64,000 nt of DNA from positions 5,323-69,322 of the IMG/VR virus record IMGVR_UViG_3300029309_000014. One strand, given 5' to 3'. Below are positions 1,873-59,778 of this stretch, piece after piece. This stretch comes from a virus. A program made the position numbers and the translations under genes. Below the pieces are notes generated by a model, which saw only the letters and a list, made by a program, of their open reading frames with translations, made no database searches and was not told the origin of the DNA. Every line of letters begins with the position of its first letter. The stretch's first letter is position 1.

Positions 1873-1874
1873 AA

Positions 1875-2159: not shown

Positions 2160-2163
2160 TATA

Positions 2164-2852: not shown

Positions 2853-2864
2853 AACATTCTCCTA

Positions 2865-3485
2865 TTAGTAAACTGAGTATTCTAGCTCCACAGTAAATCT
2901 GCCAGCGGTGACATCGGCATTTACAGTTGTTGTAGCTCTAGCATACAAATGTACGTTTGCGACAGCCGCAGTAATGTTTGGCACAAAAATATGATAATTA
3001 CCTGCGGTGTCGTTAAAGTTCACATCAATCTCAGTAATAGATTGAGTTGCGCTCAACTGCTCGTTAAAAGAGGTAACACCAGCACCAACAATTTCAGTGC
3101 CTGAAACAGCAGCATTAGTAGCTGTCCCACTTGTAGAACTCAAAGCAAGGTTTCCAGCAAGAGTTTGACCAGCAGCAGTTGTAATGCCAATTAATGCACG
3201 ATGAATAAATATTTTGCTCGGTGTAACCAGATCATCAGGGGCATCTACATTTAAAGTGCCAAGCTCTACAAGACAATCACCATCTGCATAAGCTGTTGAA
3301 GCAGCGTTTGTTGCTGCTAGAGTACCAGCAAAAGACTGTATCTTGCGTGTCCCCATTGAAACAATCTGGCCTGTGGCATTAACAGAAAAACCTGTTTGCG
3401 TAACCGCACCAGTTGTGCTGCTTTCATTGATTACATTGAAACCGCCCTTTGAACGGACTGGTCCCGAAAAAGTGGTAGTAGCCAT
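2865..3485 (-). CDS. Putative capsid decoration/spike protein (MATTTFSGPVRS N-terminus)
   Basis: Directly downstream of MCP; N-terminus shared with 61801..62349; T/A/G-rich. Confidence 0.6.
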   Translation of the reverse strand: MATTTFSGPVRSKGGFNVINESSTTGAVTQTGFSVNATGQIVSMGTRKIQSFAGTLAATNAASTAYADGDCLVELGTLNVDAPDDLVTPSKIFIHRALIGITTAAGQTLAGNLALSSTSGTATNAAVSGTEIVGAGVTSFNEQLSATQSITEIDVNFNDTAGNYHIFVPNITAAVANVHLYARATTTVNADVTAGRFTVELEYSVY

Positions 3486-3490
3486 GTCGA

Positions 3491-3535
3491 TCTCCTGTCT
3501 TGGCTAATGTCAGTCACACTATGTAACTGTCAGGA
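3491..3535 (-). promoter_or_regulatory. Conserved structured 5' leader sequestering the RBS (copy 1)
   Basis: Minus strand TCCTG-A-CAGTTACA-TAG-TGTGACTG-ACATTAGCCAAGA-CAGGAG; same architecture at 62355..62399 with compensatory changes. Confidence 0.6.
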
Positions 3536-3542
3536 TGGAAAA

Positions 3543-3582
3543 ACTATAAACAAAAAAAGGGCGGCTCGCAAGCCGCCCTTTT
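3543..3582 (-). terminator. Intrinsic terminator after MCP with overlapping sigma70-like promoter
   Basis: GGGCGGCT-TGCG-AGCCGCCC followed by T7; TTGCGA-N17-TATAGT. Confidence 0.75.
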
Positions 3583-3594
3583 GAATATTTTATG

Positions 3595-4503
3595 TTACGC
3601 TCCCGGAGAGGCGAAAACGCAACGTGGGTCAGATACTCCAAAGCTATAACGCTCACGAGCTTTGTACCGCACGTTACCTGTATCAAAATCGCCTTCCATA
3701 GCAGTTTGCATCGGTGTACGAACAAAATGCTTGAAGCCGTTTGGTGCATCCGTTTTAATGAAAAATGCGTCCGTATCGGTTAAAAAGTGGTTGACCACAT
3801 AACCTTCAGGTAGCATACCCATATTACGGAGGGCGTTGATATCGTTGTCTGCTGTTGCAGTACGCAGATTCGAAGCCATCAACCGCTCTGCCACAAATTG
3901 CAATGCTGGTGGAATAATCATCTTCATACCGCGAAGTGCAATCTTAAGACCGCGCTCATCGATAAAAGCTGAAATATCAATCAGTGATTGCTCAAGTGAC
4001 GTTTCATTCAAGTCAGCCGCAGTTGTCAACTCATTACGGAAGTTGCCACCAGCAGTGGTTGGATGATCTGTTGCACACAATTCTTTACCATCACCAAGTG
4101 TAAAGCTAGAATCAAAAGCATTGTTCAGCACTGCTGCTGCTTTGACTTGCTTTGTATTAGCCATGGAACGAGCCAATGCACGAGTATAACGAGAGCTGAG
4201 CTTGTCGTAAAGGTTATCCTCAACGGCTTCTTCAGTGATCGAAAACGCAAGTGCGATTGTTTCATGTGTGTAACGAGCGGTAAATGCTTCATTAGCAATA
4301 TCAAATGATACCGCAGCACCTTCTTGTTTAATGGGTGCTGAGCCAAAGCCAGCGAGCATTACCTCTTCTTCGAACGCACGATCAGAGTTTTCTGAATCAA
4401 AAATTTCAGCATGCTCATTTTCGTAACGATCATACTCCATACCAAACAGAGCGTTTAGTCCAGGCTCTAGTTCTTTAAGGAGTTGGGATCTTGCAATAGC
4501 CAT
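3595..4503 (-). CDS. Major capsid protein (copy 1)
   Basis: MAIARSQLLKELEPGLNALFG..EGDFDTGNVRYKARERYSFG pattern typical of this marine phage MCP family; position after scaffold genes and before a strong terminator. Confidence 0.9.
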   Translation of the reverse strand: MAIARSQLLKELEPGLNALFGMEYDRYENEHAEIFDSENSDRAFEEEVMLAGFGSAPIKQEGAAVSFDIANEAFTARYTHETIALAFSITEEAVEDNLYDKLSSRYTRALARSMANTKQVKAAAVLNNAFDSSFTLGDGKELCATDHPTTAGGNFRNELTTAADLNETSLEQSLIDISAFIDERGLKIALRGMKMIIPPALQFVAERLMASNLRTATADNDINALRNMGMLPEGYVVNHFLTDTDAFFIKTDAPNGFKHFVRTPMQTAMEGDFDTGNVRYKARERYSFGVSDPRCVFASPGA

Positions 4504-9318: not shown

Positions 9319-10488
9319 CTAATCTAAAATATCTGTTAATGAAGCGATGCCACTTTTCCCAGCTTTTAAAGCTGCTTCATATGCTTCTTGTAAATTTGTC
9401 GTATCAAACCCAGATGAGCCCCTGTTCCGAGAAGTACCCACAGGGTTGCTAGTATAGGTTCTACCTTTTCGTGCTAATGTCGGTGAAAGCTGTTGCATTT
9501 TATCCCGCATAGCACCGAAATTAAAAAAAGCTAATTGATCAGCAGTAGAAGGACCACCTAAAGCACGGAAAGATGTATCTATGTTTTCTGGTGTAATACG
9601 AGAATCAGGTTCTCTATCTGGAAACCCTACATTTACATCACCAAAAGGTGTAGGCACATCTACAGTACGCGGCAAACCAAAATAATCTAAAGCATCATTT
9701 ACTGACGGTCCTGGAGGAGGAGCTATGTTTAATTCGGGTATAGTGACAGTGAGATCATCTAAATTAAATGCTGTTTGTTGTGTTCCTGGAGGCATACCAG
9801 AAGTGGTGGGGGCAGTATAATTATCCTGCATAAACTGTCCTGCTTTAGTTTGGGCTCTGCCAAGAGGAGCATCATCAGGGCGACCTGTATATTCACCAAT
9901 AATACTATCTTTACCCACTACTGTACTACCAGAAGCTATCCCTTGATTTTTTGTTGCAGGATTTGTTGTAGAACCTAGCCCCATCCTGCCAGCAATAGTA
10001 TTTGCTAATCCAACAATACCTTTCACAGTATCAGTTCCAGGAACAACTGCCGATAATATACCTAATGGTGTATTTCGTCCAGGAACAACCATATTCTCTA
10101 TATTTTGACCAAAACTTTTTTTAGTATCGTAGCCAAACATTCCAGGAATATCTGTTGGCTCTCTATACCCTAATTGATCAGCTACATAATTTTGTGTAGA
10201 AGTAGCATATGGATTCATACCTTGAGACAATGCATCTAAAGCCGCATTATACGCATCCGCTCCTGGACCAGACATTCTACCAGTAGCTTCATACCCAACA
10301 TTGCCACCACTTTCACTAAAAGGGCTGTCTTGTCTACCAATGCCAGAGCCACCGCCATCGCCACCACCACCACTAAAAGTATCGGCCGTTAAACTACTCT
10401 GTCCTTCACCCATACCTCCGCCAAAAGAGCCACCGCCATAGCCGACGTTGCCTCCACTTTCACTATCGGGACCATCTTGTCTACCCAT
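9319..10488 (-). CDS. Gly-rich low-complexity protein, possibly an internal virion protein
   Basis: Duplicated GRQD..SESGGNVGY motif; C-terminal GIASL; directly downstream of portal. Confidence 0.6.
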   Translation of the reverse strand: MGRQDGPDSESGGNVGYGGGSFGGGMGEGQSSLTADTFSGGGGDGGGSGIGRQDSPFSESGGNVGYEATGRMSGPGADAYNAALDALSQGMNPYATSTQNYVADQLGYREPTDIPGMFGYDTKKSFGQNIENMVVPGRNTPLGILSAVVPGTDTVKGIVGLANTIAGRMGLGSTTNPATKNQGIASGSTVVGKDSIIGEYTGRPDDAPLGRAQTKAGQFMQDNYTAPTTSGMPPGTQQTAFNLDDLTVTIPELNIAPPPGPSVNDALDYFGLPRTVDVPTPFGDVNVGFPDREPDSRITPENIDTSFRALGGPSTADQLAFFNFGAMRDKMQQLSPTLARKGRTYTSNPVGTSRNRGSSGFDTTNLQEAYEAALKAGKSGIASLTDILD

Positions 10489-12890
10489 TACCCACCCCCT
10501 CTATTAGCTGTGCGTTGTAGGGCTATCTGTGCTCGCATCGCAGCTATATCTTCTGTGCTGCCAATACGCTCACGTTGGATGGCGGCTTGCTCATTTGCTT
10601 TTTGTTTATTAAACTCCAGCTCCATTTGCTCTTGGCGAGCATCCTGCATTTGATCTTGTTGGCGTAGCATAAGCTCTTGCTGTTTTAATTCAACTAATGG
10701 GTCTTGTTTCTGCATACCCATTAATTGTGCTTCTTCTTGTAGATATGCTGTAATTAAATCCGACTCTATTTCATCTAAACGGCTTTGCATCATTTCAGGT
10801 GGTATTTGTTGACCCTGTTGTTGCATCTGCTGCATCTCTTGCTGAGCAATCATTTGTGCTTTCATAGATAAATGCTCAAATATATGTGTTTGCAAAATCT
10901 GCATTGCTGCAGGATTACCTTTTACAATAGCACTATTGAAATAAGCTAAATGTGATTTTATATGTGCATCATGGTTTTGTTCTGGGAAGGCTTTTAATTG
11001 TTGTCTACCAGCCATAGCTAATTGCAATTGACCATTTTCAGTAATGGCATTTGTGGGCTTTGGCTGTTGTGGGGGAGTAAGTATTTGCTCAATATTATCC
11101 ACACCCAAAGCACTATACATCCTGCGGTATGCTTCATAAGTATTATGCAACTGTGGGCTTGCTTGTGCGAGTTTTAATTGCTCACTCGCCAAACTCACAC
11201 GTTGTGACATACTGAAAATATTAGGGTTAGCTACTGGTACAATATCTACACGACCATCAAAATCCTGTGCTTTCATACCTTGTTGGTTGCCAGTAACATT
11301 GTACAAATAATCACTGCCATCTGTACCGATTATTTCAGCAAGTAACTTAAACTCTTGCTTCATAGCATTGTACAAGCGTTTATGCACCGCAGACATAATA
11401 CGGCTACCACGCTCCATCAAGGCTACTGTCGTACCAACAGGCATTTCAGTATTTTGGATATTGCCTGTGCCAATATCTGTAGTACCTACAAATTTTTGTG
11501 CTGCCTGAACTACAAAACCAAGCAGCTGGAACAGAGTCGCGCTCGGCTCTTTGTAGGGCAAAGGTAAGAGCGAGCCGCGTAACTCTGTTCCAACAACATC
11601 TACATCGCGCCATTCTCCGGGCTGAAGTGGCTGGTCATCATCACGGATACGTAACCCTCGTGCTTTAAATCCTGCTGGCATATTTGACAAAGTGCCAGCA
11701 TCTATCAGCTGTCTAAGGTTAGCTGTAGCTGTACGCGATAGATTACCAAGTAAATGAATCAAACCATTACCGTAAAAACCCAATCCTGGAGTAAACATAT
11801 AATGAATAAAAAACTGTTTTTTACGCTTAAACGTATCATTATCAGCATAATTACGGTAAATAGATAAAACTTGACCAGAATCTGCAGAAACAGTAACAAT
11901 ATATGGCAGTTTTATACCTGTCGGCTCACCATCTTCATCTTTATCAGCAAAATCTTCTATATCTAGGTAACAATGGCACTCATAAAGCACTAATTCTTCA
12001 TAAGAACCTGATTTTTCCAAACCAGAAAGCTCTTCTTTAGCCTCTTTTAACTCATCATACTCACCTTCTCCAGGATATACCTCTAAATCACGGTAAAAAC
12101 CATTTACTTGTAACTTGCGTAACTCATTTTCAGTCATACGAATGATATGTGTTACACGTTCTGTGCTTGCTAAATCAGTAGCATTGTATGGAACTAGCAA
12201 ATCTTCGGCTTGTATAAACTTACTTACCTGTCTGCCTAGTTGTGGATCAGGGTATACCTTCTTAAATGCACTACCGCATAGCCCTAAGTAGTATAACATC
12301 TGGTCAAATTCAGAATCATACTCTTCCATAACATGCAGAATCTGGTAATTCATCTCTGTTTTAATACGTTCTGCCTGTTTCTCTAATTCTGGTGATGTAT
12401 CACCCAAGACTTGTGTGCGGACAGGACCACTCGGAGGCAATAATTCTTTATAGGCTTGGCTTTGAAACTGGCTAACAGCTTCATTCAACATAGGATGTAT
12501 TACACCAGTAGCACCCTGAAAAGGTTCTGTACGATTATCGTACTTTACACCCAATAAATCTAAACCTTTTGTATATGTGCTTAACCATTCATTACGAGAA
12601 GCTTTATCCTCATCTACTTTTTCAAGCACCATACTAGATATACCTGTAAGTTCATCATCATCGATAAACTCAGCTAGGTTATCCATAAATTTTGCTTCAC
12701 CTTTATCCTCCGCATCAGGTTCGGCAAACTCTACTGAACCATCTTCAAGTGTGGACATCTCCATACCATCAAAAGAAGGTTCAGGGGCAGCGGTCGGTAG
12801 TTCTATTTCTAATTCATCACTAGGCAGTGGTTGACCAACTAAAGTAAATTCACGCTCAACATTATTATAAGGGCTAGGTTTTTTCGCCAC
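10488..12890 (-). CDS. Portal protein
   Basis: 800 aa after TerL; LCGSAFKKVY, GFYGNGLIHL, LRQLIDAGTLSN, PVGTTVAL motifs; Q-rich coiled-coil tail of P22-like portals. Confidence 0.88.
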   Translation of the reverse strand: MAKKPSPYNNVEREFTLVGQPLPSDELEIELPTAAPEPSFDGMEMSTLEDGSVEFAEPDAEDKGEAKFMDNLAEFIDDDELTGISSMVLEKVDEDKASRNEWLSTYTKGLDLLGVKYDNRTEPFQGATGVIHPMLNEAVSQFQSQAYKELLPPSGPVRTQVLGDTSPELEKQAERIKTEMNYQILHVMEEYDSEFDQMLYYLGLCGSAFKKVYPDPQLGRQVSKFIQAEDLLVPYNATDLASTERVTHIIRMTENELRKLQVNGFYRDLEVYPGEGEYDELKEAKEELSGLEKSGSYEELVLYECHCYLDIEDFADKDEDGEPTGIKLPYIVTVSADSGQVLSIYRNYADNDTFKRKKQFFIHYMFTPGLGFYGNGLIHLLGNLSRTATANLRQLIDAGTLSNMPAGFKARGLRIRDDDQPLQPGEWRDVDVVGTELRGSLLPLPYKEPSATLFQLLGFVVQAAQKFVGTTDIGTGNIQNTEMPVGTTVALMERGSRIMSAVHKRLYNAMKQEFKLLAEIIGTDGSDYLYNVTGNQQGMKAQDFDGRVDIVPVANPNIFSMSQRVSLASEQLKLAQASPQLHNTYEAYRRMYSALGVDNIEQILTPPQQPKPTNAITENGQLQLAMAGRQQLKAFPEQNHDAHIKSHLAYFNSAIVKGNPAAMQILQTHIFEHLSMKAQMIAQQEMQQMQQQGQQIPPEMMQSRLDEIESDLITAYLQEEAQLMGMQKQDPLVELKQQELMLRQQDQMQDARQEQMELEFNKQKANEQAAIQRERIGSTEDIAAMRAQIALQRTANRGGG

Positions 12891-12985: not shown

Positions 12986-14458
12986 CTAACCGTAATAGGA
13001 ATTTGTTCTTGGCGGTGCATCGACATAATCGTTATAATCCTCTGGGTGTTGTATAAACCCACCTTCGCGGAAACGTCGGAGAGCCTGTGTTACTGTATCA
13101 ACAAAATCATCATTTTCGCCAACAGGAAATGAAGCACACTCTTCTATCACTTCCTCTGCCCATCTAGTATCCGGAGCCCATACTAACCCACTTTCTAGGA
13201 TTGGCGCAATGGAGTTTACACGAGTATATTTATCATTACCTCTACTCGGGGAATAATTCTGCACTGGAATACCCATACTACGCAATTCTTGCGTTAATGG
13301 CATACCACTGGCTTTTGCCTCAATAATCACACATTCTGGTTCCCAATAATCATATTCTTCTTTTGCAATACGTTTTAATTCAGGAAAATCCCATCGGCCA
13401 CGTCGCGCATCTACCAAAACAATATTAGGTGCTTCACCCTCAACTGGGTAAAATACACCCCATGTTGTTATTGCACTATAATCAGCATTCTCTTTTTTAC
13501 TGTATGCTGTATCATAACTCTGCATCACATAACTTAATTTAGGAATATCTTCTTTTTCCCACTTATTCCACCACTCACGCTTTAATATAGCTGTTGTTTC
13601 ACTCGTCGGGTTTTGCTGCCATTGTGCTTCCCATTTACCAACTGATAATGAAGCCTTCACCTTTAATAATTCATCTTTTTTCCAAAACTCCGGCCATAAT
13701 ACCTTTTCATCATCTAATAATGCTGGAAACTCTATTACCTCCCACTGGTCTGCTAATACATCCCGCGCCTGTTGCTTTAATAATTTGCCAGTCAAATCTA
13801 TCTCTGACCAACGCGTCATCACAATTACAATCGCTCCTCCAGGCTGCAATCTTTGCCGTGGACCAGATGTATACCACTCATAGGCATTCTCTAATGCTGC
13901 TGGGGATAAAGCATCTTGTTCAGAGTGTGGGTCATCAATAATCATTAAATCCGCACCACGGCCTGTAATCGCACCCCCTACACCAGCCGCAAAATATTCA
14001 CCGCCAGCATGGGTCTCCCATCGGCCAGCCGCACTACTATCCTGTCGCAATTTAACATCTGGAAAGACTAGAGAGTAATCGTTACTATTCATAAGGTTAC
14101 GCACCTTTCGGCCAAACCTTACTGCTAACTCACCTGTATGCGTTGCCTGTATTATCTTTAATTTTGGATTTAATCCCATTAAATAACTCGGCAATAAATA
14201 ACTTGCATACTCTGACTTTGTATGTCTTGGCGGCATATTCACAATTAACCGCTTAATACTACCATCAGCTAAACCATTAAACTTCTGCGCCATTATCTTA
14301 TGGTGCTTCCCCTCAATAAACTCAGGCCATACTGTTTTGCAGTAGGCCATAAAATCCTTCCTCGCGTGATCACTCGAGATATGCTGTTTCTGCTTCTCAA
14401 GCAACCGCGCATACTGCTTTAATACTTCTTCGGGGATAGTTACCGGAACATCACTCAT
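12986..14458 (-). CDS. terL: Terminase large subunit
   Basis: NMPPRHTKS Walker A-like, GADLMIIDDP Walker B, VMTRW, SYDTA nuclease Asp, NDDFVD. Confidence 0.93.
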   Translation of the reverse strand: MSDVPVTIPEEVLKQYARLLEKQKQHISSDHARKDFMAYCKTVWPEFIEGKHHKIMAQKFNGLADGSIKRLIVNMPPRHTKSEYASYLLPSYLMGLNPKLKIIQATHTGELAVRFGRKVRNLMNSNDYSLVFPDVKLRQDSSAAGRWETHAGGEYFAAGVGGAITGRGADLMIIDDPHSEQDALSPAALENAYEWYTSGPRQRLQPGGAIVIVMTRWSEIDLTGKLLKQQARDVLADQWEVIEFPALLDDEKVLWPEFWKKDELLKVKASLSVGKWEAQWQQNPTSETTAILKREWWNKWEKEDIPKLSYVMQSYDTAYSKKENADYSAITTWGVFYPVEGEAPNIVLVDARRGRWDFPELKRIAKEEYDYWEPECVIIEAKASGMPLTQELRSMGIPVQNYSPSRGNDKYTRVNSIAPILESGLVWAPDTRWAEEVIEECASFPVGENDDFVDTVTQALRRFREGGFIQHPEDYNDYVDAPPRTNSYYG

Positions 14459-14652
14459 ATTATTCTAATAATATAAAAATTTTCTCGGCGCAATGATCTC
14501 GGATCAATGTTTCAAAAAAGGGGGTATGGGTACGCTGTATAATTTTCAGAGTGGTAACGATTTGGACAGAACCGTGTACTGCGCTGGTGCTTGTACACCA
14601 CTCGTCGCGCTAGGGGGGTTGCCCTGTGGCAAAAGTGCAACAGTGTTGCAAA

Positions 14653-14681
14653 CCAGCCGCCAAGTACCTTTTGGCGGCTGG
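14653..14681 (-). terminator. Hairpin terminator after the 176-aa gene
   Basis: CCAGCCGCCAA-N7-TTGGCGGCTGG perfect 11-bp stem, followed by TTT on the minus strand. Confidence 0.65.
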
Positions 14682-14691
14682 CTGCTAGGGG

Positions 14692-15222
14692 TTAGCTGCT
14701 AACCACCAGTTTGCACAGTGGGTTGCCCCAGCCTACGCTGCTAGGGCTGCTGCCGCCAGCCATAGCCTTTAACACTGGGTTTTGGTTAAGGCTGCTGGTA
14801 ACGCTGCTGCCGCTATTAGCAGCAATAGCATTTACCATTGCAAGCGGCACAGCGGCTGGCACTTTAGTAGGCACTGTGGTTTTTAACCAGCCAAAGCTAG
14901 TAATAAACTTAGGCTTTGGTGCGGTATAGCCTTGTGCGCTAGGCTGCCAATACTTAGCTGGCAAGCCACCATTAACCATAACCCAAAGCATTTGCCCAAA
15001 GTGGCCTATTGCCTTGCCGTTGGCTGGCTGCATAGCACGCCAAAAGTTAGCACCGCCCATAAGCGCGTTGGCTTGCACGGCGGCTGGTGTTAGCTGCACG
15101 TTAATATTGCCAATGCCATTAGCAGTAATAAACGCCTTAATAGCAAGGCTGCAATAAACGCCTTGGCTACCCAAATTTGCGGCCGTAAAGGCTGCCGCTG
15201 CCTGTGTTGTTGTGTTACCCAT
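14692..15222 (-). CDS. Asp/Glu-free 176-aa protein, paralog of 17593..18051
   Basis: Long ORF with upstream AAAAGGGG RBS-like element and a terminator; collinear similarity to the 152-aa protein. Confidence 0.8.
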   Translation of the reverse strand: MGNTTTQAAAAFTAANLGSQGVYCSLAIKAFITANGIGNINVQLTPAAVQANALMGGANFWRAMQPANGKAIGHFGQMLWVMVNGGLPAKYWQPSAQGYTAPKPKFITSFGWLKTTVPTKVPAAVPLAMVNAIAANSGSSVTSSLNQNPVLKAMAGGSSPSSVGWGNPLCKLVVSS

Positions 15223-15356
15223 TGGTAAACCCCTTTTGTAAAAAGCAAAGCACCATTGCCTTGCCCTATTGTTATGGCATAGGTGGTATATGTTTGTAAA
15301 CCCCTAAAAGCACATTAATGCAAATAAAGTTATTATTGCACCAAGTATTGCCGCCA

Positions 15357-15539
15357 CTAACATTTATGCCGCCATGCGCTAATGTAACCATGCGCGGCTA
15401 ACACCAGCCCCATAACAAACATAAACACGTTTATATAATGGTGCATTGGCGGCAAGTTAAACGTGCCTAAACTAGCAAACATTAATGTAACACCAGCCAC
15501 CATATTTAACGTGCAAAAAAACATATATACATAAACCAT
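15357..15539 (-). CDS. Asp/Glu-free 60-aa two-TM membrane protein
   Basis: ATG 15539 preceded by AAAAAGGGG; MVYVYMFFCTLNMVAGVTLMFASLG..VFMFVMGLVLAAHGYISAW. Confidence 0.6.
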   Translation of the reverse strand: MVYVYMFFCTLNMVAGVTLMFASLGTFNLPPMHHYINVFMFVMGLVLAAHGYISAWRHKC

Positions 15540-15699
15540 AATAAAACCCCTTTTTGTTTGTTGCGTTATGTAAATACTTAAAAGCAAAAACACGCTCAAG
15601 CAAGCGGCAATGTGCTCAAAAAATATCGCGGCCTGATCTCTAAAGAGACCGTATATGATAGATGCGATCACGTCCAGGATCGGATGGAAAGATAGATCA

Positions 15700-15722
15700 A
15701 TCCATCCATCCATCCATCCATC
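15700..15722. repeat. (ATCC)5 microsatellite within a GATC-rich patch
   Basis: atccatccatccatccatccatc; four GATC within 15635-15698. Confidence 0.85.
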
Positions 15723-15737
15723 GGCTACAAAAAGGTT

Positions 15738-15763
15738 GGTAGGGCAACCGAAGTCGCCCTACC
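15738..15763 (-). terminator. Intrinsic terminator
   Basis: GGTAGGGC..CGAA..GCCCTACC stem-loop followed by AACCTTTTT on the minus strand. Confidence 0.7.
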
Positions 15764-15770
15764 GTTGGGG

Positions 15771-16136
15771 TTAACTGATATCGTGCCAATGCCAACGGTA
15801 CTCGTTTTTTGGCTCGTCAAAAGTTGGCTCCTCAAGGTTGGGTTTAGCCTCAAGTTTTTGCCAGCGTGGTTGGCTACCGTCAATGTACTTAAACCAAACC
15901 TCATCTTTACCGTCGGCAGTAAAGACATCCTTACCATGGTAAAAGATCTCGCAGTCTTGGTTGCTCCAACTTGGGCAACCGTCGGCGTCAAAAAGGTCGT
16001 CGTCTTTTTCATAATTTATGTACACGTTTTGATAAAAACGCAAACCTTGTATAAGGCTTAGGATGTCAACGGCATTTACCCGTCGTACATGTATAGCTGT
16101 TGTAAAGCTATTATGGTGGTCAACTATATAAAGCAT
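15771..16136 (-). CDS. Hypothetical protein (TC-poor coding strand)
   Basis: 121 aa; GAGG RBS upstream and terminator downstream. Confidence 0.65.
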   Translation of the reverse strand: MLYIVDHHNSFTTAIHVRRVNAVDILSLIQGLRFYQNVYINYEKDDDLFDADGCPSWSNQDCEIFYHGKDVFTADGKDEVWFKYIDGSQPRWQKLEAKPNLEEPTFDEPKNEYRWHWHDIS

Positions 16137-16308
16137 TGTACTTACCTCGTTTTGTAGCTGTTACCAAAATTAGTAACAATTAAAAGGTAGCACACAGCAC
16201 ATCGCTGAGTGTCCTACTTGGTCGCTGTGACGTCTTAAGATGTCCAGCTCTGATGTCTTTTGAGGTCTGTTTTGTTTGAGTATATATGATGGTGTATATA
16301 CATATGAA

Positions 16309-16770
16309 TCATTCGTCATCTTTCATCGTCCATCTATCCATGTCCATCGGGTCGTCGCTCGTCATCAATCGTCCGAGGACTCTTGCCCATCCATCACGAT
16401 CCATCGGCCATTCCATTCGATCATCGTACACTGGCTCATCATCCATCAATCTCTTGCTCAGGTTACGACCATCCAAAAATAATAGCTGACTAGACGAAAG
16501 ATGATGGACCAAGTTCCAAACGCATCCACCAACAGAGGTTCTTGAGGTCTGCCATGCTATTTGATGAGGACGCCATTGTGGGAACTTCTTGTCAGACTTT
16601 GTCGTAAGAACCTTTAGCTCAACCCAAAAGTCCTTGCCATTCAAGCAACCGTTGACGTCAGGTACTCCTGGACTCGCCCACGACTCCATCCTAGTCCAAT
16701 GCACCCCGAGGGGCTTGGTTCCATCACGTAGGGCTTTCCAAAGTTTAGATTCAGGCTTCTTTGTCGCCAT
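16309..16770 (-). CDS. PD-(D/E)XK nuclease, Holliday-junction-resolvase/VRR-NUC-like
   Basis: ESKLW..TRMES..GVPDVNG..FWVELK..RPHQIAW motifs. Confidence 0.75.
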   Translation of the reverse strand: MATKKPESKLWKALRDGTKPLGVHWTRMESWASPGVPDVNGCLNGKDFWVELKVLTTKSDKKFPQWRPHQIAWQTSRTSVGGCVWNLVHHLSSSQLLFLDGRNLSKRLMDDEPVYDDRMEWPMDRDGWARVLGRLMTSDDPMDMDRWTMKDDE

Positions 16771-17305
16771 CAGGTAGAACCTCCAAGTTGTCCATTTCTA
16801 TGACAGGGCTGGTTGCTTCTACCAATGCTGGATACTCTTGCTGTATCCGCTTAATTTCAGTGAGCACTTCTTCTTTACTCATTTGGTCTATTTTACCATG
16901 CAGTATTTCTTTACGATCAATGTAAAGACCTGCCGCTGAACCTCTGGCTTTTTCAGCAGATACGGCGGCGGCATAGTTTCCATTTTGCAATGCTTGGTCA
17001 CGCAGTTGTGCGAGCTTTTGTACATGACTTTCAAAAGTAACCTCGTACTTATGCTGTAGCTCTTTCTTGATTTCATAAACCCTTTGCAAGACTTGTGGGT
17101 AGTTACGACCATTTAGCATATGACTCGCAATAGAGTGTGCGTTGGATTCAGCATACCCTGCCCTGAGTGCCGCTTCCGTTTGCGTAACCTCTTCTGTAGC
17201 ATAAATCATTGCAAATTTTTCCTGCATGGGTGTCAGCCCTTTTTCCACCCGAGGGTTTGCAACAATGTCCAAACTATTTTTGTGAGTGACTTTTGCTTTT
17301 GCCAT
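16751..17305 (-). CDS. terS: Terminase small subunit
   Basis: LTPMQEKFAMIY..TQTEAALRAGY HTH; AAVSAEKARG..GLYIDRKE. Confidence 0.85.
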   Translation of the reverse strand: MAKAKVTHKNSLDIVANPRVEKGLTPMQEKFAMIYATEEVTQTEAALRAGYAESNAHSIASHMLNGRNYPQVLQRVYEIKKELQHKYEVTFESHVQKLAQLRDQALQNGNYAAAVSAEKARGSAAGLYIDRKEILHGKIDQMSKEEVLTEIKRIQQEYPALVEATSPVIEMDNLEVLPDGDKEA

Positions 17306-17592
17306 GAGATCATACTACTTTTCTATAATAGGAACGTAAATAGAAATCGAGTCATTACAAAAAACCAACGGCTCAAACTCGCGTAGCTGTCTAAAGTTTA
17401 GACTACAATATATGAATTAGAGGTATAATCCTTTGATATGATTGTATAGCCATATATCGTATATTTGAATATCGGATAGAGTACAATACCCCATATTTCA
17501 TTTTTGATACTATATATAAAAGTAGCACAATATCAAAGAGAGCCATGATCCGTGGACCATGACCCTCTACTTGCCTTTCGTATAATTTGTGA

Positions 17593-18051
17593 TTACTTGG
17601 CTGGGATAACAAACAACTCAACGAAAGCATTACCCCAAGTCGCTTTTTTAGCTGGCGACTGCCCACCATTAAGCGCATCCAATAAAGCATGAAACTTGCG
17701 TGCTTTAATTGAGCGGTGGCAATTATCAACATCTTGTAAAGTAACAAGCTGATTACCAGAGTTGATCAACTGCCAGACCACTTTACCACGAAGTGTAGTT
17801 TTTGGCTGACCGTCAGTATCGTACAAAGTACGCTTGGCCTCGTACGGTAATGGCTGGTCGGTCTTTGGGTCAACCGTTGCCACTAGGCGAACACCGACAT
17901 TGTTTGGGTTGCCGCCAGCGTGCTCCTGAACAAATGAATCAATGTGGTCGGCAGTGATGCCAAACTTTTGTTGATCCTCAGGCAACTCATTGATGCCACG
18001 AAAAACGACTTCTGCCACTTGGGACTTTTTAGCTACAGCTGATTTAGCCAT
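17593..18051 (-). CDS. Hypothetical protein, ordinary-composition paralog of 14692..15222
   Basis: ATG 18051 after TAGAAAGGAG; C-terminal ALNGGQSP..WGNAFVELFV. Confidence 0.75.
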   Translation of the reverse strand: MAKSAVAKKSQVAEVVFRGINELPEDQQKFGITADHIDSFVQEHAGGNPNNVGVRLVATVDPKTDQPLPYEAKRTLYDTDGQPKTTLRGKVVWQLINSGNQLVTLQDVDNCHRSIKARKFHALLDALNGGQSPAKKATWGNAFVELFVIPAK

Positions 18052-18207
18052 AATGATGCTCCTTTCTACGAGCAATACCGCGACTACATTGCCGCTTTGG
18101 TAAGTATAGAGTACCGCAGTTGATAAACGATGTAAATACTTATTTACTCATTTAGAGAAAAAGAATTACCAGTAAAACAGGTATCATATCCCAGAGTAAT
18201 TCCATGA

Positions 18208-18612
18208 TTACCACCAACAGTGATACACGACTTGTGTACCTTCTGCCATTGCTTGCCGAGCGGCTATTACAAACTGATGATCATAATTTTCATATTGTTC
18301 TACCGATTCTTTTTGGAATTGGTCACCGTAGAAAAAACCATTATTGCTAATATTTTCGGCGTACCCTCTAAACACAGCCTTTTCAAGCTCATCTATATCA
18401 GCTTCGGTAAGTACCATATCCTCACAATTTAACTCAACGGCTGGTCTGCCAGTTTTTTTAACCCACAGTTTTTCCATAAATTTTTGAAGCCGAGCATGTT
18501 TACGCCAGTAAAATTCTTGGTCGGCCATTTTTACTTCAAATTCTTTACCAGTATCTGTATCGGTGCGCTTTTCGGTTTTAACGCCAATCATACCATATTG
18601 ATCAAGTCCCAT
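18208..18612 (-). CDS. Conserved phage protein (MGLDQY..YWRKH..YHCWW)
   Basis: 134 aa; GGAGG RBS; motif common in phage early regions. Confidence 0.75.
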   Translation of the reverse strand: MGLDQYGMIGVKTEKRTDTDTGKEFEVKMADQEFYWRKHARLQKFMEKLWVKKTGRPAVELNCEDMVLTEADIDELEKAVFRGYAENISNNGFFYGDQFQKESVEQYENYDHQFVIAARQAMAEGTQVVYHCWW

Positions 18613-22915: not shown

Positions 22916-23443
22916 TCAAACGCTTAAATTATAATGGATTAGCACTTTATTCACTGGTTCAAAATCAGCTAAATCAGAAAACTTTTTATAGAGATAGTTG
23001 ATGCCTGTGTGCATTATCACTTTCATCTGGTCACTTTGATTTGAATGGCGATGGGAATAGAGTACGAGTTCAAGCATATCTGCCATTTTCAATCTATTCT
23101 TTTCTTCTGGAGTGAGAACAAATATCAATCCAAGGTCATCCATCACTTTCTTTTCAGCATCTTCAAATGCTTTATGTACCTCAGGAAAAGACCATTTAGC
23201 TGTGGCTGGTATATCACCAAGAATGAGTTCAGGTACATCATGGTACAATGAAGCCATAATCAATTGTTTTGTACTATCAGGCCAAAGCTGGTCAATCAAT
23301 ATACTTACTGCGTATGAATGTGCTCCCACTGTCTGTCTCTCTGCTTGCATGGCAACTGTGTGGAAGCGCAATAAGAACTGAGCATCCCACGCTGTTGTCA
23401 AAGTTTTAATGTTCGGTATTGTCTTGCATTGGCGTTGCGCCAT
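22916..23443 (-). CDS. HD-domain 5'-deoxynucleotidase (YfbR-like)
   Basis: RFH..QTVGAHS..LYHDVPE..GDIP..KMADMLE. Confidence 0.82.
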   Translation of the reverse strand: MAQRQCKTIPNIKTLTTAWDAQFLLRFHTVAMQAERQTVGAHSYAVSILIDQLWPDSTKQLIMASLYHDVPELILGDIPATAKWSFPEVHKAFEDAEKKVMDDLGLIFVLTPEEKNRLKMADMLELVLYSHRHSNQSDQMKVIMHTGINYLYKKFSDLADFEPVNKVLIHYNLSV

Positions 23444-25467: not shown

Positions 25468-25858
25468 TACCTCGCATTCGCACTTCTGCTTCTACAAGAA
25501 ATAAATACCGACGTAAGTCACGGATATCATCAAGGATACCTTCCTCACGCATATCATCAAAGGCAGCTTTAAATACATCATAATTATATTCTGTAACTTG
25601 TTTTTCAAGCCTATCCCATTTACGAGCCAGCATCATAAAAGCACCAACACCGCCACGCTGCTTCCAGCTATCACCGTAAGACTGCTCTGAATTATGTAAC
25701 CCTTCTACATCTTGATTAGCTAACCCAACGATATTATTAACAATAGGGCTATAATCATCAGGGGTAATATCACCGTTTTTTGCCATATTTGTATACTCCT
25801 CCCAATCTAATTCCTGCATACGCCTTTTCATGTATTGTTCGTGGCTTTCTCTTGCCAT
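25445..25858 (-). CDS. Nucleotide-modification-associated all-alpha protein (Nmad1/DUF1599, MazG-like)
   Basis: SYGDSWKQRG..RKWDRL..ILDDIRDLRRY. Confidence 0.65.
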   Translation of the reverse strand: MARESHEQYMKRRMQELDWEEYTNMAKNGDITPDDYSPIVNNIVGLANQDVEGLHNSEQSYGDSWKQRGGVGAFMMLARKWDRLEKQVTEYNYDVFKAAFDDMREEGILDDIRDLRRYLFLVEAEVRMRGNGKRKAG

Positions 25859-26856
25859 TTATCTCTCCTACGTTCTAACCATTCCCAAGTAGCTAAATGC
25901 CAATCATCGGGTTTTATATCTGCACAATGGTCAAAAGCTAAAGCTAATTCTTTAGCTTTCCATGCTTGCCATACTCGGTGCATAGGTTGTGCCAAATCGG
26001 AGAAACAGGAATTTATATATGGTCTTGGCCTTTCAGTATCTTCCATAAACCATTCTAACTCTTCATCAAATGATTCTATATTATTTACAAGAGCATCTGG
26101 CCTAATCATACGCACATTGTATGATTCATAATCAGGGTTCATACCCTCTAGCTTTTTTAATACTTCAGTATAAGCATGAAGGTTATTACTAAACTGTGTA
26201 TAGATACCAACACTCGCGCCAATGCGAGAGGCTATATACTCTTGAAGAATGGACATATGGACAGCATTAGCTCCCAATGCACCCCAGATCATATCATTAC
26301 TACGGTTACATACTGTCATATCCAATATATTATCACGCACATTAAAATAGATATGAGTATTACAGGGATGGTCTTTACAGCTATTACTCATCCGTAAATC
26401 ACCCTCAGCATCCCACATTGCTAGAACTGCTCGTCTATCATTTGTATGTGTCATCAACCTGTGGATGATTACATCAATCTGATCACGATGAAAGTAATTA
26501 CGCCAACGGTATCCGTATGCTCCCTGTAATATTTTACCATCATCACTATACTCACCCATCCGTGCATTATAGCGTTGTATCCACTCTAAATCATTACGCC
26601 CTGCTAACATCCACAGGCTTTCCATAAAGTGAAATATTGGGTTTGCATCACGTTCGGGGTAAAACAGTACACGCTCGCGTGGGTTATTGTAGACAATAGC
26701 ACATGGTTCACGGAACTCAATTGCTTTACCATTACGAGTTTCTACTTCTACACCATTAGCTTCTAATGCTTGCTTCACAACAAACAATGCTTCGCTTACA
26801 TTTCCTACGGTGAAAGTATGCACCCCTCGCATGGGTGCTTTGCCATATAATGCCAT
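25828..26856 (-). CDS. Thymidylate-synthase-fold enzyme, probable dUMP hydroxymethylase
   Basis: Catalytic PC (KDHPCNTH); RSNDMIWGALGAN with Asn at the dUMP-specificity position; NLHAY; context of hypermodification genes. Confidence 0.8.
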   Translation of the reverse strand: MALYGKAPMRGVHTFTVGNVSEALFVVKQALEANGVEVETRNGKAIEFREPCAIVYNNPRERVLFYPERDANPIFHFMESLWMLAGRNDLEWIQRYNARMGEYSDDGKILQGAYGYRWRNYFHRDQIDVIIHRLMTHTNDRRAVLAMWDAEGDLRMSNSCKDHPCNTHIYFNVRDNILDMTVCNRSNDMIWGALGANAVHMSILQEYIASRIGASVGIYTQFSNNLHAYTEVLKKLEGMNPDYESYNVRMIRPDALVNNIESFDEELEWFMEDTERPRPYINSCFSDLAQPMHRVWQAWKAKELALAFDHCADIKPDDWHLATWEWLERRRDKWQEKATNNT

Positions 26857-26939
26857 ATTTAACCGCCTTTCTATGGGGTTTTAAAGCTGCTACAGCAGCC
26901 TGATTTAATTTGCCCTACCCTATTACTAAAAGCAACCCT

Positions 26940-27959
26940 CTAGCTTTCTGAGTAGCCTGTAATAAAGTCAAAATGTTTCTTAACTCTCTTAGTATAAGTG
27001 CCTCCTCTTAACGCCTCCTTGATTGCAAGCGTTGTTTCCTCAGTAGGCTCGGGTAATGCCTTGCGTCCCATGCGGTCAGGTAACAATCCATTACGCAGAG
27101 TGGTATTGTCACAACCGTTACAAGGACCGAAATCACGTTGCCCATGATACAATTTTGTTCTCGCTGCATGAAATGCTTCCCCCTGCCATACTTCTTCCAT
27201 TGGTACATCAACTACATTGCCACATTTGTACCATCCAGGCCAATCGTTACAGCAAACAGCGACATTACCATCCCAACGTATAGACATTTCACGGAAAGGT
27301 TTAGCGCAGCGTTTACCATCTTGTTCATGGTTTAGATGGAAAGCGTTACCAGCGTGGTTACTGACTTGGGCATGGGTTCCGCTTGTAGCGAGCGTAAGAT
27401 CCATTCCAACAACGATAATATGTTCTGTAACTTTTCGTCGTTGGTGAGGGTTTGCGTTGCGCTCTGCAGGGTATTCGTATACAGGGTATGGACCATTATA
27501 TCTCTCCTTTATTTTATCTACTATTTTGATACGATCATAATTATCAAGAAACAAAACATTAAGTCCTGCTTCCATCAGTTGGTTGACACTTTTTTGAGTG
27601 TCGCGTAAAAGACCACCGCCATTGCTTGTCATCATAAGAGAAGTTTTTGGCAACTCCTGACGGAATAGTCTAATCATGTCTATGAAGAAAGGGTGCATAG
27701 TCGGCTCACCGTGCATGGCAAACTCTAGCCGTGGGTTCCATCCTGCTTCTTTTATACGGTCACAGATAGACCTTGCTCTTTCTATTGTTAAATATCTGTA
27801 AGGGGCAGATGCTTTACCATGTATATTTTCTGGACCATCTGCTTCATTTTCACGTATAGATTGTATGCCGCAAAAAGAACAAGCAAGGTTACACCCCTCT
27901 GTTAATTCAATCTGAATAGAGTTGGGTGGGTCTTGGTGATAGTTAGATTGCACCGCCAT
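26940..27959 (-). CDS. Radical SAM enzyme with SPASM/twitch-like C-terminal domain
   Basis: CNLACSFC, HGEP, MTSNG; C..PF..IRWDGNVAVCC..CNGC. Confidence 0.88.
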   Translation of the reverse strand: MAVQSNYHQDPPNSIQIELTEGCNLACSFCGIQSIRENEADGPENIHGKASAPYRYLTIERARSICDRIKEAGWNPRLEFAMHGEPTMHPFFIDMIRLFRQELPKTSLMMTSNGGGLLRDTQKSVNQLMEAGLNVLFLDNYDRIKIVDKIKERYNGPYPVYEYPAERNANPHQRRKVTEHIIVVGMDLTLATSGTHAQVSNHAGNAFHLNHEQDGKRCAKPFREMSIRWDGNVAVCCNDWPGWYKCGNVVDVPMEEVWQGEAFHAARTKLYHGQRDFGPCNGCDNTTLRNGLLPDRMGRKALPEPTEETTLAIKEALRGGTYTKRVKKHFDFITGYSES

Positions 27960-28728
27960 CTTTAGCTGCCTTTCTCCATTGAACACGAACATCCCAACGT
28001 GTTTTCATACCCTCCCATCCTGTTTTAGTTTCTTTCTGCACTGCTTTTACATACAGTGGAAACTCTTCAGCTAATGCCCTACTTGCCTTTTCTTGTAACT
28101 CTGCATTACGGTATGAACTACAACCACCAGCCGCACCAGAAGCACCACGTTGATCCCATGTCCAATCTACAATTACAGCATTACGATGCCCTGATTGAAA
28201 CAGTTTAAGGGTAACATAATAATCCTCCATTAAGTCCATAGTATCGTATCTTATGCCTAGCCCATGAATAATTTCAGGACGTATAGCATGAACAGCATTT
28301 TGTCGCATACCGTACTTAATTGTATCAGGAAAATGTTTATCGTTCATTTGTCGTGGGCTAAGACCAACATGGGTATGGTTCATTAACAACCACTCCATAC
28401 GCTCCCATAATTCGTGCATTTCTTCTTGGTTTGTTTTTCTTAGATTTGGAATATCCCCAGATATACGCCTCCCAAATATAAGATCATCATCCAAAACAAT
28501 AATTTTATCATGCCCTGCCTCCATAGCGTGTTCTAATATGAACTGCCGTACATTATTGATTCCTTTAATTTCACCGCGATTTATACAATCACGCCCCTGT
28601 TTGGTATGCCAATTTATTTCTTCTTGTGGGCAAACAAGAGCAGCATACTCTCGGGCTTCCGGACCAATACTATCCCAAGTAATTTGGTTATTCATCCTAC
28701 CCCTTGTTGGTATATATATTGGTATCAT
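27943..28728 (-). CDS. GT-A glycosyltransferase, TET/JBP-associated (TAGT/GREB1/base-J-glucosyltransferase-like)
   Basis: IYIPTRGR..GINNVRQFI..IVLDDD..MEDY..GGCSSYR. Confidence 0.75.
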   Translation of the reverse strand: MIPIYIPTRGRMNNQITWDSIGPEAREYAALVCPQEEINWHTKQGRDCINRGEIKGINNVRQFILEHAMEAGHDKIIVLDDDLIFGRRISGDIPNLRKTNQEEMHELWERMEWLLMNHTHVGLSPRQMNDKHFPDTIKYGMRQNAVHAIRPEIIHGLGIRYDTMDLMEDYYVTLKLFQSGHRNAVIVDWTWDQRGASGAAGGCSSYRNAELQEKASRALAEEFPLYVKAVQKETKTGWEGMKTRWDVRVQWRKAAKDGGAI

Positions 28729-29033
28729 ATCTCATCCTCATCAAATCTTACTTGGCCTGTCATAATAGCTTCTTCTAGCTCTTCATCTGTAAGGGTGCGT
28801 ACATCTTCTAACTGATTCCATACTTTAGGGTTTTTCACTTTTGGTTTTAATTTTCTTTTCTTTGGTTTTACCAATTTCAGTTTGGGTGGCTCTTTGCTCT
28901 TGGGTGGCTCTAATACTTCCAATGTCCGATAGCTGTACTTGCATTTCTGACAAATCCTCTTCCTCCGTATCGTGCTTTCGTAGGATCGACTGTCTACGAC
29001 GGAAGATCTGCCATTGCATTTTGGACACAACAT
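28725..29033 (-). CDS. NrdR-like zinc-ribbon protein lacking the ATP cone
   Basis: MLCPKC..SSVVDSR..IRRKRICQKC..YRTLE matches the NrdR N-terminal pattern. Confidence 0.7.
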   Translation of the reverse strand: MLCPKCNGRSSVVDSRSYESTIRRKRICQKCKYSYRTLEVLEPPKSKEPPKLKLVKPKKRKLKPKVKNPKVWNQLEDVRTLTDEELEEAIMTGQVRFDEDEI

Positions 29034-29035
29034 AT

Positions 29036-29932
29036 TTACGCCACCTCCCCATTAACAGCCTCCAGCATTGAACCTTGTAATCCATTATACTTACTACGAG
29101 GAGTGCCTTGACCAAGACGTACACGCTCATACTTATCCCACTCGCAAAGGCTGTGTTCAATACAACGCATATCCACAGCCAGAGTCGGGATGTGATTGCC
29201 AAGATAACGGTGCGAATCTTCGAGTAAATCGTGCATCTCCCTATTGCTTTGATAAGCACCTAACGCTTTTGTAAGAGGTCTATCATGGATTCTATTGAGG
29301 CCTCGTTTTGCTCCTGGACCTGCATTTGCCCAACTAAAACGGTCTTTTGCCTTGTCCAATACAGGTGTGTAGTTGAGGTCGGTAACCACCTCGTATGACA
29401 TAAAACCTCCTCCTCCCCACCCTTTATACTTAGCCATCGCTTCATGTACCGCTTGGAGCGACTGCGTTTCGGTGGCAATCTGCGCCAACGCTTCTTTGTT
29501 CTCCCATATTGGCGAAAGGAAATAGTCAACTACTACCTCTGATTTTGGTAACTTGAGTCCTTGGTTAGTGATTATATAAGCACCAGTAAATGTCCGTAAA
29601 CCCTGCTCAAGCCGAGCCTTTATCAAGTCTTTAGTAAAAGTAGGGTTAAAATCGTGCGACCAACCATGTGCATCAGCAAACTCACTAGTCCCAACCATAC
29701 GAAACATACAGCAATTAAATATAATTTCACCATGTGGACGGTTACTATTTGGCTTAGTAAAATTCTGTCTCATCCACACAGTAACCCTATCATTCTCACG
29801 GAAAGGATTAGTAAACTTATAATCGCGTAATATAGGGTCATCAGTCCAAGGGGCTGGTTGCCCCTTGGCTCGTTTTTGGTAAATAGCGTGACGCTCGTTT
29901 ATCCAGTAGCAGAACCTTTCTATGTTCTCCAT
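29036..29932 (-). CDS. aGPT-Pplase clade 1 thymidine-hypermodification protein (HhH-glycosylase-like fold)
   Basis: ERHAIY..PWTDDPILRDYKFTNPFRENDR..FTGAY..GFMSYEVVTDL..GPGAKRGL..EHSLCEWDKY. Confidence 0.82.
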   Translation of the reverse strand: MENIERFCYWINERHAIYQKRAKGQPAPWTDDPILRDYKFTNPFRENDRVTVWMRQNFTKPNSNRPHGEIIFNCCMFRMVGTSEFADAHGWSHDFNPTFTKDLIKARLEQGLRTFTGAYIITNQGLKLPKSEVVVDYFLSPIWENKEALAQIATETQSLQAVHEAMAKYKGWGGGGFMSYEVVTDLNYTPVLDKAKDRFSWANAGPGAKRGLNRIHDRPLTKALGAYQSNREMHDLLEDSHRYLGNHIPTLAVDMRCIEHSLCEWDKYERVRLGQGTPRSKYNGLQGSMLEAVNGEVA

Positions 29933-29935
29933 AAT

Positions 29936-59774: not shown

Positions 59775-59778
59775 GATC

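Follow-up and report, generated by a model that had tools for sequence, protein, structure and literature searches.

Hypermodification of thymidine is known from phages such as M6, ViI, phiW-14, PaMx11 and SH-Ab 15599, which carry a homolog of the deoxyuridine monophosphate (dUMP) hydroxymethylase, a 5-hydroxymethyldeoxyuridine (5-hmdU) DNA kinase and aGPT-Pplase transferases. According to the sections available of the respective papers, conversion of 5-hmdU occurs in sequence-specific contexts (PMC8989533, PMC5889632), and modification is partial and set by the base after T. Restriction mapping placed hypermodified T at TG and TC in M6, ViI and phiW-14 (PMC6449724), and in the Acinetobacter phage 15599 it is found mainly at TG and less at TC (PMC13458397). 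The same sections report neither a target-free island nor a recoded gene for these systems. Thymidylate synthase and aGPT-Pplase1 ‘partner’ genes have also been described, in the part of the paper available, for the HTVC023P-type pelagiphages of clades V, VIII and IX (PMC9599517). Here we analyse 64,000 nucleotides (nt) of an uncultured tailed phage, positions 5,323 to 69,322 of the IMG/VR virus record IMGVR_UViG_3300029309_000014; this whole stretch is called the window. The window contains an island of 990 nt with neither GA nor TC on either strand. Inside the island lies a gene, copy B, whose protein of 176 amino acids (aa) lacks Asp and Glu, and upstream of it lies an ordinary paralog of 152 aa, copy A. 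Coordinates of all features are collected in Table 1.

The window resembles the M6-type systems in carrying a thymidylate-synthase homolog, an HMUDK_hel/aGPT-Pplase1-like protein, an HD deoxynucleotidase and a radical SAM protein. It differs from them in that the implied modification context would be TC only and that modification is predicted here from the genes. Thymidylate synthase and aGPT-Pplase1 genes are also what the window has in common with the HTVC023P-type phages, and its large terminase (TerL) is 58-63% identical to those of phage 023Pt_psg01, the Pelagibacter phages HTVC027P and HTVC023P and phage DSL-LC04. Neither an island nor an A/B pair is mentioned in the available part of PMC9599517, and four published genomes of this type have no PF18723 gene, no pair and no island.

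Copy B is the only one of the 68 open reading frames (ORFs) of at least 100 aa in the window that encodes no Asp or Glu; the median fraction of these residues is 12.9%. Ser is encoded by AGC in each of 15 cases, Phe by TTT in each of six, and Ile by ATT or ATA only. The codons TCN, TTC, ATC, GTC, GGA, AGA and CGA are absent. These codon counts confirm what an earlier note on this DNA had described, namely a 176-aa protein with no Asp or Glu and no TCN, TTC or ATC codons. The absence of both GA and TC from the plus strand of the island means that neither dinucleotide occurs on either strand, where about 100 occurrences would be expected from the averages of the window (3.8% GA and 6.3% TC). GA alone is missing over the wider interval 14570..15634, and the next-longest gap free of GA and TC in the window measures 74 nt. 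Besides B, the island covers 86 nt past the B stop codon, a 134-nt upstream spacer and a small hydrophobic ORF, and the cleared stretch extends 373 nt upstream of B. TG and CA are not depleted inside the island. Hypermutation of TC to TT was rejected as its origin, since the GC content of about 46% is higher than that of the window and TT is not enriched. Ordinary avoidance of restriction sites was also considered as a cause and rejected.

TGA and TCA cannot occur in DNA that is free of GA and TC, long ORFs are therefore cheap in such DNA, and the coding status of B needed testing. B has 17 homologs in the database, with identities of 65-96% and no Asp or Glu in their printed alignment. The reading frame is open in all nine full copies from related IMG/VR loci, the ratio of nonsynonymous to synonymous substitution (dN/dS) against relatives is 0.10-0.25, and differences from the window fall mostly on third positions (26, 20 and 76 by codon position in locus L013). 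Taken together, the open frames, the third-position bias and the low dN/dS identify B, by sequence comparison, as a coding gene under purifying selection. The acid-free ORF is thus conserved, a point on which the earlier note had let its proposal stand or fall. GA and TC are still absent from B where the proportion of synonymous differences (pS) reaches 0.57, and the same comparisons indicate that a separate, strong selection against GA and TC acts beside the purifying selection.

Copy A has 56 homologs (hidden Markov model (HMM) E-value 2e-80). It ends at 17593 and B starts at 15222; the gap of 2371 nt agrees with the separation of 2.4 kb given in the earlier note. In BLASTP, A and B match in a C-terminal block (E-value 0.001, 11 of 26 residues identical) and in a middle block (E-value 0.09). 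Of the three collinear blocks that had been aligned by eye, BLASTP thus recovers two, and hhalign aligns all three collinearly. The blocks are the most conserved motifs of both families, whose proteins are about 150 aa long and share the motifs AGGNxxNV, G(K/R)xxxW...NG and LNGG(Y/F)SxSSxxWGTxxxxLV.

Profile comparisons with hhalign were made against 44 A-family sequences (alignment A2). A close set of B sequences (A1) gave a probability of 75.7% and an E-value of 2.4e-5, and 50 diverse B sequences from the loci gave 91.0% and 1.1e-6 over 124 columns. With alignment A4 the values were 90.1% and 1.6e-6 over 127 columns, nearly end to end. Real scores were 38-46, the maxima of column-shuffled alignments were 21.8 (200 shuffles) and 18.3 (100 shuffles), and reversed alignments scored 10-15. 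The similarity of A and B, at probabilities of 90-91%, is therefore significant and lies above the shuffled and reversed controls. A further profile, A3, comprises ten distant family members that a search of 1.84 billion representatives with the A profile had retrieved. It matches A of the window with an E-value of 5e-16 and B with 1e-4 (3070 ORFs), as well as 85 of 85 A-type and 51 of 74 B-type ORFs in the group to which the window belongs. With the A2 profile alone, none of the 74 B-type ORFs was retrieved. Our data make it almost certain that B is a paralog of A.

With the A and A3 alignments, 165 loci were retrieved from IMG/VR, some of them overlapping on one contig; together with the window they make 166 sources. 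An HMM scan of all ORFs showed a tandem A-B pair on one strand in 136 of them. The earlier note had proposed to look in relatives for paired normal and acid-free homologs, and the pairing of an ordinary with a GA/TC-depleted copy is widespread. Twenty-nine sources, mostly contigs cut short, have one family gene, and one has a split copy. Throughout, the upstream copy A is ordinary (6-20 Asp/Glu residues, 34-67 GA/TC) and the downstream copy B is depleted. B is directly followed by TerL in all 107 loci that show both genes; the position of A varies. The islands of relatives are 450-1025 nt long. In eleven IMG/VR loci, B lies within islands of 658-1025 nt, the shorter ones being cut by contig ends. 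For 49 distinct fully cleared B genes, the cleared stretch begins 7-409 nt (median 131 nt) before the ATG and continues 31-99 nt (median 80 nt, 47 loci) past the stop codon.

Among 104 distinct B genes, 47 contain no GA or TC at all and ten contain 1-5, all of which are in-frame Asp or Glu codons. The others have 1-10 GA/TC of other kinds (16 genes), 11-25 (15 genes) or more than 25 (16 genes). The class that keeps only Asp/Glu codons indicates that it is the DNA which is being cleared and that acidic codons are the last to go. Alignment columns that are mostly Asp or Glu in A copies hold Asn, Gln, Ala, Thr or Lys in B copies. We hold it virtually certain that the DNA is the level of selection; the lack of acidic residues in the protein follows as a by-product. 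Profile homology, the tandem pair in 136 of 166 sources, the substituted columns and the B genes with Asp/Glu codons only support the earlier inference that one family is kept in two versions, one of which has lost Asp and Glu owing to the GA/TC-free stretch. By sequence, B is an old tandem paralog of A, in a family of HTVC023P-type marine podophages with thymidine-hypermodification genes.

A quick maximum-likelihood tree of 84 representatives, in which shared composition may pull acid-free sequences together, separates the A copies (15 rows, support 99) from the B copies (20 rows, support 97) in the group of the window. Three relaxed B genes with 17, 16 and 30 GA/TC adjoin GA-free sisters. 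This nesting suggests that the cleared state is old and has been lost several times recently. Relaxed B genes with 11-43 GA/TC, in lineages that keep the modification genes, were observed in L039, L044-L047, L076, L078-L081, L099-L110 and others.

The sequences around B are conserved in layout. Upstream, and inside the island, a putative promoter-like element was recognised by eye; its first part, GGGGTTTACA, occurs exactly once in the window. Its -35-like hexamer TTTACA does without the GA of the consensus TTGACA. In an alignment of upstream sequences read by eye, most members of the window's group share AGGGGTTTACA-N17/18-(C/T)ATAAAAT, followed by a hairpin and then an AAGGGG ribosome site. 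In the window, the interval 15223..15267 between promoter-like element and ribosome site holds a GC-rich hairpin, a possible 5′-leader structure, whose sequence differs among lineages while its pairing, judged by eye, seems to be kept. The 3′ flank of B folds with -57.8 kcal/mol (z -3.5). Across loci its order is constant: hairpin, TTGCAAC-like repeats, C6-9 tract, end of the island, inverted repeat and TerL. A stretch of 202 nt without the dinucleotide AT (14561..14761), the longest in the window, overlaps the 3′ end of B and the structured spacer, and L108 has an AT-free run of 180 nt in the same relative place. The small hydrophobic ORF would encode 118 aa if it starts at 15713; its 60-aa form has no Asp or Glu. 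Some of the loci have a ‘memb’ homolog between A and B. Tandem arrays of GATG, GATT or GACG with at least three units occur in 70 distinct loci and are on the coding strand without exception (115 of 115); those of the window are at 15699..15722 and 16440..16451. They are often found 43-54 nt past the A stop codon, behind a terminator hairpin, or just ahead of B or the island, and are packed with GA, which the island excludes. Within 14000..18500, Rfam gave nothing credible. In the RNA run X20, one small contig lies at 15475..15584 (assembled contigs only), from which no conclusion was drawn.

Table 1. Features of the 64,000-nt window discussed in the text
Feature	Position	Strand	Remarks
Copy B, 176-aa protein without Asp or Glu, paralog of copy A	14692..15222	-	net basic (K+R 10)
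Copy A, ordinary 152-aa paralog	17593..18051	-	16 Asp/Glu, 41 GA/TC
GA/TC-free island	14606..15595 (990 nt)	both strands	0 GA and 0 TC on the plus strand
Promoter-like element of B, inside the island: GGGGTTTACA, ~18 nt, CATAACAAT	15268..15304	-	by eye, putative
3′ flank of B within the island: strong hairpin, TTGCAAC-like repeats, C6 tract	14606..14691	-	
Small hydrophobic putative ORF, wholly inside the island	15357..15539	-	60 aa from internal ATG
Intrinsic-terminator-like hairpin closing the upstream operon before the island	15738..15763	-	11-bp stem, 7 GC pairs, T run
(GATG)5GATT array just ahead of the island	15699..15722	-	GA-dense
Thymidine-hypermodification gene cluster	25828..30553	-	beside DNA polymerase
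Thymidylate-synthase homolog, candidate dUMP hydroxymethylase	25828..26856	-	PF00303, E 2.8e-20
Radical SAM/SPASM protein	26940..27992	-	Pfam
TET-associated glycosyltransferase (TAGT)	27943..28728	-	Pfam
298-aa HMUDK_hel/aGPT-Pplase1-like protein	29036..29932	-	PF18723, E 1.6e-50
205-aa ORF at the position of ‘kinase’ in phage PAC5	29936..30553	-	no Pfam or PHROG match
HD/YfbR-like 5′-deoxynucleotidase	22916..23443	-	Pfam, E 1.4e-8
Portal	10488..12890	-	
Large terminase (TerL)	12986..14458	-	next gene after B
Small terminase (TerS, Terminase_2)	16751..17305	-	Pfam, E 2e-8

In the subset of window ORFs that was scanned, the thymidine-hypermodification set is the only DNA-modification machinery found, and there was no DNA methyltransferase among ten further ORFs. 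In cultured phages, proteins homologous to the 298-aa one carry the annotation aGPT-Pplase1. The Yuavirus PAC5 has a ‘kinase’ gene ahead of its aGPT-Pplase1-type gene, in the position that the 205-aa ORF takes in the window. PF18723 was found in ten of ten near-complete relatives with the A-B pair and in none of the four published relatives that have no pair or island. Two genomes with nearly cleared B genes, G004 and G005, have neither the radical SAM nor the glycosyltransferase gene; the island thus goes with the synthase and PF18723 genes rather than with the radical SAM or glycosyltransferase gene. Judging from this gene content and the published dinucleotide contexts, TC is probably, if with little more than even confidence, the hypermodification context of this phage, and the DNA of the island would then stay unmodified.

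On balance we favour, again only somewhat above even, an explanation in which the B cassette has been purged of the dinucleotide that the phage itself hypermodifies, with the loss of acidic residues from the protein as a by-product. Selection clears the whole cassette, from the promoter-like element through the 5′ leader and the coding sequence to the terminator hairpin and the repeats that precede the C tract. Removing every 5′-TC-3′ on both strands is the same as removing every GA. All codons for Asp and Glu begin with GA, and clearing B has thus pushed its protein to an 18-letter alphabet in which Asp and Glu are replaced by Asn, Gln, Ala, Thr or Lys. As one dinucleotide is cleared from both strands, selection seems to operate on double-stranded DNA. 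Hypermodification of thymine would be post-replicative and installed at T followed by C. To an enzyme specific for TC, the island would be the one stretch with no target on either strand, and it would stay unmodified. B might then be readable by the host RNA polymerase, or its DNA might be recognised, irrespective of how the remaining genome is modified. A more specific and distinctly tentative version places the cassette at the packaging-proximal end and takes B as a basic, acid-free DNA reader, the first or the only modification-independent product of incoming virion DNA, which may license reading, protection or packaging of the modified genome, with A acting on replicated DNA. The earlier note had proposed a bootstrap order in which B would be expressed first and A would take over later. 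If the genome end follows the island, B would be transcribed towards that end; this is unlike transcription-driven entry in the style of T7, and early expression would still be possible.

The family itself is unnamed. A and B have no match in Pfam, PHROGs or PADLOC and no usable match in the ESM Atlas. A profile search of the PDB gave none for A2 and two for A3, at E-values of 0.3 and 0.83. A scaffold of Microvirga sesbaniae (L180, 3767..5020) encodes a 418-aa protein in which residues 77-204 belong to the A/B family (hhalign 99.3%, E-value 8e-21) and residues 315-368 to HNH_2 (Pfam E-value 2.2e-11); HNH restriction models of PADLOC match at 6e-25. A transposase-like ORF, recognised by eye, adjoins this gene. 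A search of longer proteins with A3 gave no fused forms, which is weak evidence. Two long matches of the search among representatives, P0092 and P0094, are repeat proteins and were discarded as spurious. Several distant family members carry tails rich in Lys, Ala and Pro, as seen by eye. From this single HNH fusion, and by analogy, the A/B family is probably a DNA-binding or reader module that perhaps reads modification. The earlier note had suggested a reader, activator or protector; the fusion fits a DNA-binding or sensor module, and thus supports this idea in part, and is a single case. Neither A nor B of the window has a Pfam or PADLOC nuclease match, and HNH_2 is found only in the Microvirga homolog. 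A and B are therefore not sensor-HNH enzymes; what they share with the Microvirga protein is its N-terminal domain alone. By its sequence, the Microvirga protein is a candidate new sensor-nuclease restriction enzyme.

Several observations weigh against the favoured explanation. The rest of the genome contains TC and must be transcribed, so that a block of transcription by modification is not the whole story. PF18723 is present in five of five genomes tested that have a relaxed B, and two of the relaxed lineages, G006 and G007, keep the thymidylate synthase, radical SAM, TAGT and HMUDK_hel genes. The presence of modification genes hence does not enforce the island, and the gene content of the modification cluster fails to separate relaxed from constrained lineages. 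No substitute motif was found in the TC contexts that remain in relaxed cassettes, where there is only a mild excess of TCA. The cultured thymine-hypermodifying phages PAC5 and Sonora have no dinucleotide-free island in 50 kb of each, from which it follows that the island is not general to such phages. Relaxed B copies in the group of the window still have 0-2 Asp/Glu residues, which indicates that freedom from acidic residues is by now partly a property of the protein. Against a role of B as a reader, it counts that the HNH fusion is a single case and that the B profile matches it in the C-terminal motif only, with a probability of 52%.

Another reason why the stretch might stay unmodified is its place in the genome. 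As a landmark for packaging or the terminus, DNA beside a packaging (pac) or cleavage site just upstream of TerL would have to remain unmodified, and the recoding of B would be the price of its location. Such a landmark could be a pac mark on the hypermodified concatemer, a terminal repeat, or the end that is packaged last and ejected first. The invariant position of TerL after B (107 of 107 loci) would fit, as would the fixed downstream limit of the island, which lies 31-99 nt past the stop codon after the repeats and the C tract and is followed by an inverted repeat. Contig ends were counted on assembled contigs. Within 200 nt past the B stop codon, 17 of 124 distinct contig ends accumulate, compared with 0-8 per 200-nt bin out to 4.8 kb; a control upstream of A is mostly flat, with 1-7 ends per bin and one bin of 11. 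One Logan contig spans exactly 14572..15681, and B is found at both ends of two long contigs. On the other hand, the island tracks the transcription unit of B and not a fixed distance from the putative site, given that upstream it ends anywhere between 7 and 409 nt before the ATG. Many assemblies continue from B into TerL, and contig ends may also stem from the C tract, hairpins or strain variation. The spacer between B and TerL could accordingly be a genome terminus or pac site, or merely hard to assemble. We regard the landmark as an unlikely but serious possibility. It is compatible with TC as the modification context and differs from clearance for the sake of B only in why the stretch stays unmodified. 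The spot where contig ends accumulate corresponds to 14459..14691 of the window and to the same spacer in, for example, L006, L010, L014, L018, L027, L070, L071 and L086.

It is less probable still, and we would call it improbable, that the cleared cassette shields the one gene whose product must be made before a host or competitor enzyme acting on TC or GA can be countered, for example a TC-context deaminase, a nickase, a glycosylase or a type IV enzyme reading hypermodified T. Clearance of both strands is what a DNA-level target predicts, and the fusion of the family domain to a restriction-type HNH in a bacterium means that it is used in a defence-like protein. However, one hit anywhere else in the genome of about 59 kb would kill all the same, unless the DNA enters stepwise, no enzyme of this kind acting on TC or GA was identified, and B is basic, unlike the known inhibitors that mimic DNA. 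A constraint on RNA, in which the B mRNA avoids GA and UC because of, for instance, an endoribonuclease or an RNA-binding factor and the DNA pattern follows, is very unlikely. In some lineages the clear stretch begins 7-85 nt before the ATG, maybe little beyond the transcript, but in the group of the window it covers the promoter-like element (in the window itself it reaches those 373 nt upstream of B). A single RNA would need to avoid two unrelated dinucleotides, where one dinucleotide on both DNA strands suffices, and we know of no RNase with specificity for GA or UC.

That the likeness of A and B is chance or a compositional artefact is barely credible: the weak BLASTP matches and the failure of A2 alone to retrieve B-type ORFs would suit it, but the profile scores exceed their controls, A3 matches both copies, three motifs are collinear and the tandem arrangement recurs in 136 sources. 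Last, a protein that is acid-free for its function, with the GA/TC depletion secondary or mutational, is largely refuted: relaxed B genes with 11-31 GA/TC do retain only 0-2 Asp/Glu residues, but non-coding flanks, synonymous sites (15 of 15 Ser as AGC) and codon junctions are cleared as well, ten distinct B genes keep GA/TC only as Asp/Glu codons, which is the opposite of the prediction, and the GC content and unenriched TT of the island argue against a mutational cause.

The window is part of a 69,322-base virus record and represents a tailed-phage genome whose portal, TerL and TerS genes all lie on the minus strand. B as the small terminase was considered and rejected, as B has no Pfam or PHROG match and TerS is encoded at 16751..17305. 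A tblastn search with A and B against GenBank phages gave no match. A primase-like protein (33621..35147) matches the AEP domain of a TOTE conflict system (PF22548, E-value 4.6e-14) and PriCT_1. The two ends of the window, 332..4503 and 59097..63387, carry diverged copies of the same structural genes, as in the pairs 332..1084 and 59097..59774 or 2448..2852 and 61370..61774. Relatives measure 55-62 kb, and the record seems to exceed one genome length and to combine sequence of two related strains.

Phages are known to avoid restriction sites and other motifs, and early genes at the leading end of the genome are exemplified by gene 0.3 (Ocr) of T7 and the first-step-transfer region of T5. Like motif avoidance, the island removes the targets of an enzyme that acts on DNA, and a cassette for the host polymerase at a genome end would resemble the logic of T7 and T5. 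Unlike motif avoidance, a dinucleotide instead of a site of 4-8 bp is wholly excluded, and only within a stretch of 0.5-1 kb; what is excluded is probably the target of the modification made by the phage itself, and the cost is a reduced amino-acid alphabet. In contrast to the early genes of T7 and T5, B is transcribed towards the putative end and not inwards. Vertebrate CpG islands are likewise promoter-containing stretches that escape a genome-wide base modification. By way of analogy, CpG islands keep the target and escape the enzyme, whereas the phage island would escape by deleting the target.

Modification-dependent restriction enzymes that join a sensor to an HNH domain include TagI (SRA-HNH, PMC6212794) and VcaM4I (EVE-HNH, PMC7897488), as far as the parts available of these papers and of PMC6765204 describe them. 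The Microvirga protein shares this layout, with the A/B domain N-terminal to HNH_2. The phage proteins A and B differ from these enzymes in that they have no nuclease, and by sequence their domain is not SRA, EVE or PUA. In the portions covered of the literature (full text, supplements aside), neither a dinucleotide-free cassette nor a hypermodified phage with a target-free island is reported, nor is a paralog recoded so as to be acid-free. We consider the finding to be of a new kind, while the avoidance of targets as such is an old principle and the mechanism is a proposal.

The locus is a natural case in which a constraint of DNA chemistry strips a dinucleotide from a gene cassette and hence two amino acids from a protein that has nonetheless been under purifying selection over long evolutionary time. 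At least 47 natural acid-free variants, each beside an ordinary paralog, offer a view of how far a fold can do without any acidic residue. From the HNH fusion seen in a bacterium, the A/B domain may be a new type of sensor in modification-dependent restriction. If modification does take place at TC, sequence alone would reveal the hypermodification specificity of an uncultured phage, and the island would mark the one place where this phage needs plain DNA. Should the tentative reader role of B also hold, the GA-initial codons of Asp and Glu would couple an epigenetic constraint to an 18-letter alphabet. The island and the gene pair may in this way provide a handle on the transcription, packaging and recognition of hypermodified genomes, and on the ligand of the A/B domain.

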